A stretch of DNA of 64,000 nt from Candidatus Aenigmatarchaeota archaeon. GTDB lineage: Archaea > Aenigmatarchaeota > Aenigmatarchaeia > CG10238-14 > SpSt-28. The position numbers and the translations under genes are program-made. Each line of letters opens with the position of its first letter. The stretch's first letter is position 1. The stretch covers positions 32,001 through 96,000 of the forward strand of contig JAWBMD010000001.1 in assembly GCA_039000985.1 (NCBI GenBank), in the 5' to 3' direction. The notes beneath the pieces are model-generated. The model did not search any database and had not been told where the DNA came from. It worked only from the letters and a program-made list of their open reading frames with translations. Shown in pieces: positions 57,368-59,938 of this stretch.

Positions 57368-57658
57368 ATGGCAAAAGTAATTGTTCAGGATGTTTATGAT
57401 GTAATAGGATTGGGCAATATTGTTTTATGTTATATTAAAGAGGGTACTTTAAGGGTTGGCATGGTTACTAAATATAAAAATTATGTTTTAAGGGTTGCTA
57501 TGATAGAAAGTAAAAATGAAAGAAAAGAATATGCAGAGGAAAAAGAGTTTTGTGGGGTAAAATTAATACCTAATGAATTTTCTTTAGCAGATATATTTTT
57601 TGGAAAGGGAGAAAAAATAGTTAAAGAGCTTAAAGGAGTTTTATTGGAGTTTTCTTAG
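57368..57658 (+). CDS. Stand-alone translation-factor beta-barrel (EF-Tu domain II-like) protein
   Basis: VQDVY.V.G.G......IKEGTLRVG...V..IE......A......GV.L pattern. Confidence 0.6.
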   Translation: MAKVIVQDVYDVIGLGNIVLCYIKEGTLRVGMVTKYKNYVLRVAMIESKNERKEYAEEKEFCGVKLIPNEFSLADIFFGKGEKIVKELKGVLLEFS

Positions 57659-57730
57659 TGGACCAGCCGGGATTTGAACCCGGAGCCTTCGCTCAGCCAA
57701 AGCGACGTGCTACCATTGCACCACTGGCCC
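57659..57730 (-). tRNA. tRNA-Ala(GGC), intronless, CCA not encoded
   Basis: Cloverleaf GGGCCAG-TG-GTGC AATGGTA GCAC-G-TCGCT TTGGCTG AGCGA-AGGCT-CCGGG TTCAAAT CCCGG-CTGGTCC-A, with the G3:U70 Ala identity pair. Confidence 0.95.
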
Positions 57731-59045
57731 ATTCCTTAAATTCTTTAATAGTTGGAAAAAATAAATCAATATATTGTTTAATTAAATATTTATCCACACC
57801 ACATATCTTTATTTTTTTATTTGTTATACCTATAACCTTTATTTTCTTACTTACTAAATTTTTTATCATAAATCCATAGCCTATCAAACTTTTGATGTTT
57901 TTTTCGCTGACAAAAACCGCTGTAGAATTAAAAAAATTATCACTCACAATGTAAGTTCCATACTTCGTTTCCAGTATAGTCTTTCCTTTTGGACGTAGGT
58001 TATTTTTTTCTAAAATATTTTGTATATTTTTTTCGAGTTTGTCTAATGGTTTTTTCTTTTCTATTAATGCGCCTCTAAGTGAATTTTTATTAATTAATCG
58101 AGCATAGAAATTAGATAAAAATCTTTTGAAATTTTTCATTTTCCCTTGAAGAATTTTAGTTCTTAGTTTTCTTAATTGAGTGATATCTAGGAGTATTGGA
58201 ATTATATTATTTTCAATTAACAATAGTGTTGCTTCTATTGGGAATCGTTCTTTTTTATAAGTATACTTTTTAACAAACCATGAAGTTACTATAAATTCTT
58301 TTTTTATTTTCTTTCTTTTTTCAAAAATTTTAGCTATTTCATAAAAAAGTAGAGCTTTACTCTTTCTGAATCCTAGAACTTCTTCAACAAAATTATTTCT
58401 ATAGTGAAAATCTACGCACCATCCACCTATCGGTACATGAACATCAAATGGTATATTTGCTTTTAAGTTCTCTTTTACAATCTTCTTTTCACGCTCTGTC
58501 AAGGGTGAGTTTTTTGCTCCAAGTGTTCCAAGCATCTTAAAGTAGTAGTTCCCATATTTTTTGATTAAGGTTTTCATTACTTTACTTCTAATTTTTTTGG
58601 AAGCTAGTATCTTTAACACATGCTTGCGTCTAAGTTCTTTAAATTTTTTATACATTTTTTTATTCAACTTAATTTTTTTATACCATAAAAGTAAAGAGTT
58701 GCGTCTTCTTTTGTTTCTAGCCAATTCAAGTTGTTTAAGGAACTTTTCATTTCCCCATTTCTTAATTCGTGCTTTTACACTATTTTTCCCACCTTTAATT
58801 TGTCCCCAGCTTGATTTTAATATTTGTACTTCTTTTAAAATTGTTTCTTTTTCTGGATACTCGTTTAATAGATCATTAAAAATATCCTTTGGAATGGTAC
58901 ATTCTAAACGTAGCCATCTTTTTAGTGTTGAATATGAAATACCATATTTTTTACTGAGTTCTGTTTTGGTCAGATGAAGAAGTCTAGATTTATTTTCTAT
59001 TAAAGTTTTTATGAGTGATTTCGATTCGATTTTAACTCTTTCCAT
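57693..59045 (-). CDS. Very basic HTH protein with putative PD-(D/E)xK/Vsr-like nuclease domain(s); 3' end overlaps tRNA-Ala
   Basis: TELSKKYGISYSTLKRW HTH, WGQIKGG motif, PLTEREKKI...VDF...VEE segment and a second PLDKLEKNI...VSD segment. Confidence 0.6.
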   Translation of the reverse strand: MERVKIESKSLIKTLIENKSRLLHLTKTELSKKYGISYSTLKRWLRLECTIPKDIFNDLLNEYPEKETILKEVQILKSSWGQIKGGKNSVKARIKKWGNEKFLKQLELARNKRRRNSLLLWYKKIKLNKKMYKKFKELRRKHVLKILASKKIRSKVMKTLIKKYGNYYFKMLGTLGAKNSPLTEREKKIVKENLKANIPFDVHVPIGGWCVDFHYRNNFVEEVLGFRKSKALLFYEIAKIFEKRKKIKKEFIVTSWFVKKYTYKKERFPIEATLLLIENNIIPILLDITQLRKLRTKILQGKMKNFKRFLSNFYARLINKNSLRGALIEKKKPLDKLEKNIQNILEKNNLRPKGKTILETKYGTYIVSDNFFNSTAVFVSEKNIKSLIGYGFMIKNLVSKKIKVIGITNKKIKICGVDKYLIKQYIDLFFPTIKEFKEWASGAMVARRFG

Positions 59046-59070
59046 CGGTACGGATATATATTAGAAAATT

Positions 59071-59087
59071 TATTTAAATATTTCCGT
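59071..59087 (-). promoter_or_regulatory. Putative BRE-TATA promoter of the ORF-tRNA-Ala unit
   Basis: Minus strand reads ACGGAAA-TA-TTTAAATA, ending 25 nt before the ATG at 59045. Confidence 0.55.
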
Positions 59088-59153
59088 CATTTGAGCTACT
59101 GAACCTATTTTTCTCAAAGTTTTTAGTAGTTGAAAATAAAATTCTAATTTCTC

Positions 59154-59396
59154 TTACAATTCTTTTCTTATTGCAAGATAATTATCTATAGCTTCTTTAA
59201 TATCAACTGTTATTACAGTTCCATTTGGCAAAGTTCTTCTTATTGTCATTGGTAATAGCTTATTTTTAAATTCTTCTTTTGCTATTTCTCTTGGATTATA
59301 GCTTTTTGCTTTTATGAAATAAGGTGCTCCTAATGAAATTTGCATTGCTCGAGCAGAAATTATTCTAGCTACCTCATACTTTGTCAAAATGTTCAT
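59154..59396 (-). CDS. rpo6: RNA polymerase subunit Rpo6 (K)
   Basis: TKYEVARIISARAMQISLGAP, LPMTIRR.LP.G. Confidence 0.95.
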   Translation of the reverse strand: MNILTKYEVARIISARAMQISLGAPYFIKAKSYNPREIAKEEFKNKLLPMTIRRTLPNGTVITVDIKEAIDNYLAIRKEL

Positions 59397-59695: not shown

Positions 59696-59938
59696 TTATA
59701 GTAAAAGCCTTTCTTGGGAATATATTTGACCTTCTGGAGTTCGCCACATTCTACTTATTTTTATCGAATCTACATACTCTCTGAGTCGTTCAAGATCTTC
59801 TAAAAGATTAATGTTTAGAAAATCTTCTGTAATTCTTCCATCTCCCCATCCATTAACTACTTTTCTTAAAATTATTTTCTTTACATCTTTTGGTAGGTAT
59901 GGTTCTATTGTTGTAGGTATTATAAAATAAATTATCAA
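59696..59938 (-). pseudogene. Possible gene fragment in an otherwise non-coding ~0.8 kb interval
   Basis: 80-codon frame with a TTG start and protein-like composition; upstream frames are broken by stops. Confidence 0.3.

Follow-up and report, generated by a model that had tools for sequence, protein, structure and literature searches.

How does a protein-coding gene come to end inside a tRNA gene, with the anticodon as its last sense codon? In the 64,000-nucleotide stretch of a Candidatus Aenigmatarchaeota archaeon contig analysed here (the window), a 450-amino-acid (aa) open reading frame (ORF) with predicted nuclease folds reads into the 5′ end of a tRNA-Ala(GGC) gene. We found a syntenic empty allele of the site, a nuclease fold with conserved residues, and a fixed locus with an altered donor tRNA allele, a combination that characterizes homing endonucleases. 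We conclude that the element is mobile and appears to work like a free-standing homing endonuclease. With a probability that we put at about 70%, it is a cassette predicted to cut intact tRNA-Ala(GGC) genes and to restore a resistant tRNA front, with no recourse to splicing.

A foreign ORF without its own stop codon ends in a tRNA-Ala gene

The two overlapping genes are:
57693..59045, (-): nuclease ORF, 450 aa, basic (K+R 24%), C-terminus ...KEWASGAMVARRFG*, first in-frame stop inside the tRNA
57658..57730, (-): tRNA-Ala(GGC), found by ARAGORN and Rfam RF00005 (63.3 bits)

They share 38 nt. As an initial annotation made from the sequence had read it, the final sense codon of the ORF, GGC, is the tRNA anticodon (57698-57696), and the stop codon TGA (57695-57693) consists of standard tRNA positions 37-39 (U37-G38-A39). 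The tRNA retains the G3-U70 pair and all four stems, and it is the sole GGC isoacceptor of tRNA-Ala called in the small archaeal genome to which the window belongs (G000; 843 kb, 89.7% complete).

The initial annotation had also raised sequencing error as a possible cause of the overlap. In run X5, which belongs to a different study, a 9,374-nt contig covers 56600-59956 with 15 substitutions and zero gaps, and none of the 12 of these 15 substitutions that were listed falls within the overlap. Furthermore, a database protein (P0001) that differs from the window protein at 1 residue has identical length and an identical C-terminus. The gap-free contig and the shared protein end thus rule out sequencing error; the overlap is real.

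The codon use of the ORF is foreign. CGN codons, already suspected of being unusual here, specify 10 of its 25 arginines as against 361 of 7,427 (4.9%) genome-wide (binomial p 1e-7; reference set, the 469 ORFs of at least 200 aa in the genome), and its codon adaptation ranks 7th lowest among the same 469 ORFs. The overlap by itself is not beyond chance in so compact a genome, where ORFs of at least 100 aa enter 4 of the 42 tRNA genes at the 5′ end and stop within 13 nt of 6 more. What is beyond chance is the family-wide tie to one tRNA.

The site occurs in empty and filled forms

The host genes on either side of the insert are:
59154..59396, (-): rpo6 (RNA polymerase Rpb6/K subunit), left host flank; Pfam PF01192, E 2.7e-7; syntenic with genome G151, 77% DNA identity
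57368..57658, (+): 96-aa EF-Tu domain-2-like ORF, right host flank, convergent; weak match to Pfam PF03144, E 0.02; 78% DNA identity to G151

A comparison of this interval between related genomes, suggested at the outset, revealed an empty allele in G151, which belongs to the same genus. The gene order there is miaB-like, rpo6, tRNA-Ala(GGC), EF-Tu-D2-like, PRC and topA; the tRNA is intact, the rpo6 stop codon lies 5 nt before it, and there is no ORF between them. The stop codon of the stand-alone EF-Tu domain-2-like ORF adjoins the tRNA 3′ end in both the filled and the empty allele, and the family profile gave no match in G151. A second pair was found at another chromosomal position. In G049, rpl24e is followed by the ORF and by a tRNA-Ala(GGC) gene with extra intron-like stretches, while in G053, from the same genus, rpl24e is followed directly by an intronless tRNA-Ala(GGC) gene and rps13.

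The distribution of the element is patchy. Profile matches occurred in 70 of the 371 genomes of the phylum, mostly via the N-terminal module, and strong matches to the nuclease domains in only 6 (G000, G049, G065, G106, G107 and G118). Of the 18 genomes in the family to which the window belongs, 2 matched, both weakly and partially. Absences are uncertain in incomplete genomes; the empty site itself is assembled in both filled/empty pairs. In a check for a within-species empty allele, contigs from run X7 (depth 21-29) that belong to a strain 93-96% identical extended over both flanks and ceased to match at 57659 and 59168; among the pieces listed, those of the ORF are identical and of low depth, and none of them carries a joint across the insert.

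Two other features of these genomes were seen during the comparison. On the far side of rpo6, the window holds a second optional insert: the gap between rpo6 and the miaB-like gene is about 30 nt in G151 but in the window comprises ~800 nt of AT-rich DNA and an 80-aa ORF with no Pfam match (59696-59938, (-)). G151 also has a second tRNA-Ala(GGC) gene (C15:384-455, L086) that resembles that of another family and reflects either duplication or contamination of the bin.

Related ORFs end in the same tRNA gene across lineages

The clade that holds the window protein (18 rows, tree support 99/97) is represented by eight distinct loci (the window, L002, L062, L063, L064, L066, L069 and L071, with the duplicates L065/L067 and L068/L070 merged). 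All 8 ORFs end inside a tRNA-Ala gene, which answers the initial annotation's question of whether homologues abut tRNA 5′ ends. The anticodon GGC was read directly in 7, and at L071 the anticodon loop is interrupted. The clade's records include Nanoarchaeia and Micrarchaeota labels, and the flanking genes differ between lineages.

The use of the anticodon arm as a stop codon is not a trait of the family. Overlaps at the eight loci are 10, 10, 10, 26, 33, 34, 38 and 123 nt; the ORF simply lacks a stop codon of its own and takes the first in-frame stop in the tRNA. The C-terminus of P0002, a protein 61% identical to that of the window, reads through a similar tRNA front and implies U37. Those of P0002, P0003, P0008, P0015 and P0023, which are available as protein only, likewise read like tRNA 5′ ends. 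Judging by these sequences, the anticodon-arm stop appears to be confined to the window and, from its C-terminus, P0002, and to be incidental. The tRNA genes of the other 7 clade loci measure 94-122 nt and carry inserts, presumably spliceable introns, between the D-loop and position 38.

The front of the tRNA differs from the empty allele

The part of the tRNA gene that probably arrived with the element, as judged against the syntenic G151 allele, is:
57689..57730, (-): recoded tRNA front (gene nt 1-42)

The two alleles differ at 13 positions in the first 42 nt and at 2 in the last 30, and compensatory changes in the D- and anticodon stems keep the cloverleaf of the window tRNA. With 15 differences in 72 nt (median 5), this tRNA is the most diverged of 38 orthologue pairs between G000 and G151. 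Pairing by anticodon left 3 of the 42 tRNAs unmatched, and the Leu(TAA) pair, a mis-pairing, was excluded. The syntenic copy was used throughout, the second G151 tRNA-Ala(GGC) differing from the window tRNA at 18 of 72 positions. In a pattern search of 371 genomes, an intronless tRNA-Ala(GGC) with a pyrimidine at position 37 was found in one genome, that of the window, and one with a purine in 82 (one of the 83 purine-37 rows, from G283, is unlike a tRNA). A search for literature on U37 in archaeal tRNA-Ala returned nothing useful. With the G151 allele the ORF would run through the whole tRNA and meet no stop codon, so U37-G38-A39 also supplies the end of the gene.

The initial annotation had proposed an insertion between a promoter and its tRNA that left the tRNA undisrupted. 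This part of the proposal was not supported as it stood: the clustering of differences in nt 1-42, together with a decayed tRNA 5′ end upstream of the ORF (described below), fits an insertion into the tRNA in which the front was replaced. We nevertheless weighed a form of the earlier idea in which a mobile nuclease gene entered the leader of an unchanged tRNA and cuts outside the tRNA or at its edge, much as T4 segB lies among tRNA genes, the divergence being due to later drift or hitch-hiking. The empty allele and the patchy distribution fit such an event, as does the lack of a clear 5′ remnant at 7 of the 8 clade loci, and other G000 tRNAs differ from their G151 counterparts by up to 11 nt. 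The reading is unlikely, however, in view of where the differences cluster, of tRNA remnants up- or downstream of the ORF, and of U37, which is unique among intronless alleles and implied also in P0002.

Relics flank the ORF

Upstream of the ORF, the spacer to rpo6 contains:
59089..59105, (-): remnant tRNA-Ala 5′ end (5′ strand of the acceptor stem, start of the D-stem), scoring 8.6 bits with a tRNA-Ala 5′ position weight matrix (PWM)
59091..59140, (-): decayed direct repeat of the last ~12 pre-tRNA codons of the ORF plus the tRNA 5′ end; partner 57765-57716
59071..59078, (-): TATA-like box TTTAAATA, candidate promoter, 26 nt before the ATG with a purine-rich stretch ahead

Only 40 of 1,675,416 genome positions outside called tRNAs, and 11 of 20,000 shuffles of the 108-nt spacer, scored as high as the tRNA remnant. 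For the decayed repeat, the local alignment of the whole spacer was matched by 86 of 3000 dinucleotide shuffles, and its non-tRNA part by 18 of 3000 shuffles and 9 of 6878 genomic windows. The peptide encoded by the repeat matched the family C-terminal profile, from which the two closest members had been left out; 5 of 500 shuffles matched it equally well. These tests of the decayed repeat were made after the pattern had been noticed. The decayed repeat was also recovered as repeat D3 (30 nt at 77%). Its codons correspond to protein sequence that is conserved across lineages, so that an earlier copy of the element is the most likely origin of the spacer, with the repeat likely its relic.

Pieces of tRNA occur at other loci as well. 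A second T-arm/acceptor piece (i.e., a tRNA-Ala 3′ end) lies downstream at 3 of the 7 other clade loci (L062, L063 and L071). At the 30 loci that share the N-terminal module of the window protein (those from a profile search of the phylum; several of the ORFs are LAGLIDADG), a T-arm motif lies within 260 nt past the stop codon in 20, and an upstream copy of the tRNA 5′ end beats all 30 shuffles in 6. High 5′-remnant scores at L062 and L064 were rejected as an intact upstream tRNA and GC-rich coding DNA.

Could the remnant instead be a working 5′ exon? If the ORF lay in a giant D-loop intron or a split tRNA, the splicing endonuclease would join the remnant to the tRNA downstream. Six of its 7 positions do pair with the acceptor 3′ strand, A6 pairs with T67 of the present tRNA, and ARAGORN joins such pieces at L012, L020 and L026. 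Against this, the remnant has lost G3, which is an identity element of tRNA-Ala, and its D-stem 5′ strand is unpaired with the downstream 3′ strand. The downstream tRNA is complete alone, as is the full tRNA downstream at L012, L020 and L026, and Rfam found two tRNAs only in the window, with no spliceable intron around the ORF. We rejected this explanation on pairing, which leaves the remnant unable to serve as an exon, and give it next to no weight.

The remnant directly precedes the TATA-like box. We take TTTAAATA to be TATA-like from the archaeal consensus, and it is a candidate promoter of a leaderless transcript. The box that the initial annotation had placed upstream of the ORF is present in the sequence; its description as the clearest promoter is not established, because a motif trained by expectation-maximization on tRNA upstream regions did not tell them apart from random coding DNA.

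The protein model combines a probable DNA-binding module with two nuclease-type folds

An AlphaFold2 model built from 22 sequences (predicted local distance difference test, pLDDT, 89.5) shows an N-terminal Cro/XRE-like helix-turn-helix (HTH), a helical linker and two alpha/beta domains (residues 180-305 and 333-445). A single-sequence model of domain 2 was discarded (pLDDT 37.5). The domains map as follows:
58821..59027, (-): Cro/XRE-like HTH, residues ~7-75; VIA-align Z 6.4-7.3 to C.EcoT38IS, TP901-1 CI and 3eus
58131..58508, (-): nuclease domain 1, residues 180-305; PD-(D/E)XK-type by VIA-align and conservation
57711..58049, (-): nuclease domain 2, residues 333-445; PD-(D/E)XK-type by VIA-align

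Pfam HTH matches of the N-terminus were weak and below cut-off. The HTH and the WG..GG motif that follows form a module common to LAGLIDADG-type and other ORFs that likewise end in tRNA genes. Over both domains, VIA-align recovered a restriction-endonuclease-like core, with Z 8-10 to Can2, BsoBI, PspGI, Bax1 and NucS. Domain 1 aligned with Can2 (Z 10.1, root-mean-square deviation (rmsd) 4.1, 116 aligned), BsoBI (Z 8.5, rmsd 2.4, 109) and I-Bth0305I (Z 7.9, rmsd 3.6, 95), and domain 2 with AF1548 (Z 9.1, rmsd 3.5, 106), PspGI (Z 8.8, rmsd 2.9, 111) and FokI (Z 6.6). The top Foldseek rows were BsmI, Can2 and the homing endonuclease I-Bth0305I. D212, E222 and K/R243 of domain 1 are present in 22 of 22 rows and E186 in 20 of 22, and E338, D369 and D427 of domain 2 are invariant in all 22.

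At the (D/E)-x-K place of strand 3, the sequence reads E222-V-L in domain 1 and F378-V-S in domain 2; K243 and K395, which are conserved and lie one helix further on in their respective domains, could be relocated lysines. Fold and conservation in the model indicate that the protein is likely a nuclease, and both domains may be active. Together with the foreign codon use, the fold upholds the earlier description of a mobile, endonuclease-like gene. The two-domain nuclease architecture is new and tied to one tRNA isoacceptor, and it may act as a monomer that reads a long site. A sequence-level internal duplication of the two domains received an hhalign probability of only 1.9%. No LAGLIDADG domain was found by Pfam in 22 family members; only the N-terminal module is common to this protein and LAGLIDADG-type ORFs. 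The window protein, whose residues are taken up by other folds (HTH plus nuclease domains), has no recombinase or integrase fold. At E<=0.001, 53 representatives match the protein, 14 of them at 1e-30. The best ESM Atlas match (0.91) is an unnamed archaeal cluster, and lower rows are DUF559/HTH; we treat these as leads only. In a search for a viral origin, none of 419 pattern matches in viral contigs was confirmed, a weak test with patterns from the linker region.

The structural matches also bear on the idea that the gene benefits the host, as a regulator or a nuclease for defence (Can2/Card1-like or restriction-like), and does not home but is carried by other mobile DNA to integration hotspots at tRNA-Ala. 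The top VIA-align rows are indeed Can2/Cdn1 nuclease domains and restriction enzymes, and a Cas4-like PDDEXK_1 ORF lies just upstream of the same tRNA at L044 and L048. The insert, however, is one ORF, with no CARF domain, methylase, integrase, cargo or PADLOC match; the ORF in every case abuts the same tRNA and runs into it, and the tRNA allele is altered. We regard the defence explanation as improbable. The Can2/Card1 matches cover the nuclease domain only, and there is no Pfam or PADLOC match of the window protein to these enzymes.

The Cas4-like ORFs (L044:453-1472 and L048:481-1521) come from two genomes of another family; that of L048 overlaps tRNA-Ala(GGC) by 21 nt.

A proposed model for homing without splicing

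We propose that the element is a cassette of DPANN archaea, specific for tRNA-Ala(GGC) genes and consisting of a promoter, the nuclease ORF and a new tRNA front (or, at some loci, a whole tRNA). The protein would bind an intact tRNA-Ala(GGC) gene and cut it in the region of the D-arm and anticodon arm, and repair off a cassette-bearing chromosome would copy the cassette in. The tRNA would be rebuilt, with its 5′ part from the cassette and its 3′ part resident. The tRNA part of the cassette is either recoded (window) or broken by small introns (other loci), and the filled allele would therefore be immune. Self-splicing would not be needed because the ORF lies in a disposable 5′ leader, which RNase P would remove if the transcript is shared. 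In such a joint transcript, RNase P cleavage at 57730 would free the tRNA and remove the last 12 codons and the stop codon of the ORF, a loss that may keep nuclease levels low. The genome encodes RNase P RNA along with the subunits Rpp29 and Rpp21. In the one RNA run examined, coverage is confined to the PRC gene. The upstream relic would record an earlier copy, left either by decay and re-invasion or by tandem duplication and deletion.

We also entertain a wider proposal, possible but held tentatively, in which DPANN archaea harbour a class of splicing-free homing elements with swappable nucleases (tandem PD-(D/E)XK, LAGLIDADG and others) on a shared HTH module. Each branch would target one isoacceptor and rebuild its tRNA front, with RNase P keeping the elements harmless and quiet. 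Immunity would drive D-/anticodon-arm introns and the loss of purine 37, the remnant would be an operator for autorepression by the HTH, and the window would have seen two rounds of invasion.

Several observations weigh against the homing cassette. At the site itself, the D-stem of the remnant reads GCTC where G151 has GATC, and the remnant lies 48 nt past the rpo6 stop codon, not 5; G151 is thus not a simple precursor. A clear 5′ remnant was found at one of the eight clade loci and not at the other 7. Four of these loci (L063, L064, L066 and L069) share context and may represent one inherited event, and the more distant members at L004, L005, L006 and L008 are not at tRNAs. In the pattern search, 288 of the 371 genomes matched neither form of intronless tRNA-Ala(GGC), and this tRNA may thus often contain introns in genomes that lack the element. 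U37 is expected to weaken decoding, a cost that homing does not explain. As for the protein, Foldseek of the model gave no match at E<=0.001, and sequence searches of Pfam, NCBIfam, PADLOC and PDB gave no family match and weak HTH matches only. The canonical (D/E)xK lysine is absent from both domains, and domain 2 has no acid at the usual (D/E)xK place (i.e., the second acid is missing). Finally, the top structural Z (10.1) belongs to CRISPR ancillary nucleases, and Z near 8 possibly reflects a common arrangement.

The distant members have neighbours of their own. A tandem-nuclease member in G065 (L004:1498-2925, (-)) stands tail-to-tail with an RNase P RNA gene (1271-1488, (+)), 9 nt from its 3′ end; those at L006 and L008 end against a gene that we read as ftsY-like, and that at L005 lies at a contig end. 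Branches of the tandem-nuclease family may have other conserved targets.

Relation to known systems

Free-standing homing has been reviewed (PMC2988022). In a tRNA cluster of phage T4, SegB acts as a homing enzyme that recognises a motif in tRNAs and promotes the inheritance of its own gene (PMC2330249; PMC2988022). As in the window, SegB and T5 F-TflI/II are encoded by free-standing nuclease genes among tRNA genes, theirs being co-transcribed with the tRNAs. They are phage GIY-YIG or HNH enzymes, and the SegB site is a T-arm motif common to tRNAs (PMC2330249). The window element differs in its archaeal chromosome, its HTH and tandem PD-(D/E)XK-type folds, its single isoacceptor, and its recoded front and remnants. 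Maturation of tRNA-Arg has been proposed to cut the segB mRNA between the last codon and the stop codon, and likewise for the F-Tfl genes (PMC2330249); by analogy, stop-stripping by tRNA processing, as suggested for the window, has a published precedent as a proposal.

The closest arrangement in an archaeon is tRNA-Thr(GGU) of Caldiarchaeum subterraneum, which likewise comprises a tRNA 5′ fragment, a co-oriented ORF insert (~1.9 kb) and a rebuilt tRNA, with an extra intron at 24/25 and an empty allele within the same population (PMC3293823). That report concerns one locus whose putative recombinase ORF does not overlap the tRNA, and it is explained by pNOB8-type integration. The window differs in its nuclease fold, in a family whose members keep to one tRNA in different lineages, and in recoding instead of an intron. 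The likeness raises the alternative that the element is the remnant of an integrase-driven one, with the tRNA 5′ end as att site (the model of Sugahara et al. 2012), reduced to one gene. The shared outline of 5′ fragment, insert and rebuilt tRNA speaks for it. The protein has no recombinase fold, no integrase lies beside the ORF at any of the 8 clade loci, and the same single-gene cassette recurs across lineages, all of which make this origin very improbable. Compared with SSV/pNOB8 tRNA-integrating elements, the locus has a decayed tRNA 5′ repeat but neither a tyrosine recombinase nor another integrase.

Among homing endonucleases, domain 1 superposes on the catalytic domain of I-Bth0305I (EDxHD; PDB 3R3P) with Foldseek probability 1.00 and E 0.03. 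Both proteins have an N-terminal DNA-binding part and a C-terminal nuclease; I-Bth0305I is an intron-encoded homodimer with one catalytic domain, NUMOD repeats and an EDxHD motif (PMC3239194), whereas the window protein carries two domains in one chain. Its columns D212...E221-E222-V-L-G are followed by no conserved D-x-x-H and so depart from that motif. The top Foldseek row was the single-chain, two-catalytic-domain BsmI type (PDB 9F38/9EZD; E 0.009, TMq 0.31), which VIA-align matched over residues 177-433, covering both domains (Z 7.3, rmsd 4.6, 236 aligned). The window protein differs from BsmI in having no methylase partner, only 7-9% identity, an HTH module and a link to a tRNA. Intron- and intein-borne archaeal homing endonucleases, such as those of bulge-helix-bulge (BHB) introns in rRNA, also target a conserved RNA gene. 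In contrast to these, no splicing element surrounds the window ORF, and neutrality would come from 5′-leader removal and the replacement front.

We found no description of cassettes of this kind in DPANN chromosomes in a literature search that left subscription journals and supplements largely uncovered. The origin of odd-position archaeal tRNA introns and fragments is an open question, for which the 2012 Caldiarchaeum case offers one locus. Selfish genes that replace part of a tRNA gene may be one source. A 2026 preprint on Asgard archaea calls the arrival route of archaeal tRNA introns unknown and reports no general mobile-element signal (10.64898/2026.10.13.758758), which is a warning against generalising. 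The family described here puts names to both an enzyme and its target and supplies matched alleles, empty and filled, in a hot-spring archaeon and its relatives; the idea that selfish nucleases drive the disruption and recoding of tRNA genes can thus be tested with a single purified protein and a pair of short DNAs. Also new are a nuclease architecture of two domains that had gone unannotated and a naturally occurring tRNA with U37 that is linked to a selfish element.

Further tRNA-linked genes

Other loci show related arrangements. In G008 (L009:1456-1470 and about 2700-2740), an older tRNA is split into 5′ and 3′ pieces with acceptor ends that can still pair, and the DNA between them holds an HTH-bearing ORF and a new, complete tRNA, i.e., a whole-tRNA replacement cassette. 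The 16S rRNA gene at L018 (G034) is broken up by a pair of ORFs that carry the shared N-terminal module, which links the module to rRNA introns. The tRNA genes that adjoin ORFs at L026, L031, L020, L007 and L014 have short inserts near positions 10-20 and were miscalled or missed by ARAGORN. The top PWM match in the window's genome, a perfect tRNA 5′ end at G000:C12:72697 (-), was likewise uncalled by ARAGORN and probably belongs to an intron-bearing tRNA. Finally, the Rpp21 gene (G000:C1:9451-9765, (-); L120:152-466; Pfam Rpr2, E 1e-19) ends 10 nt inside tRNA-Arg(CCT), an overlap from which RNase P processing would strip the stop codon of the Rpp21 mRNA in a possible feedback loop.

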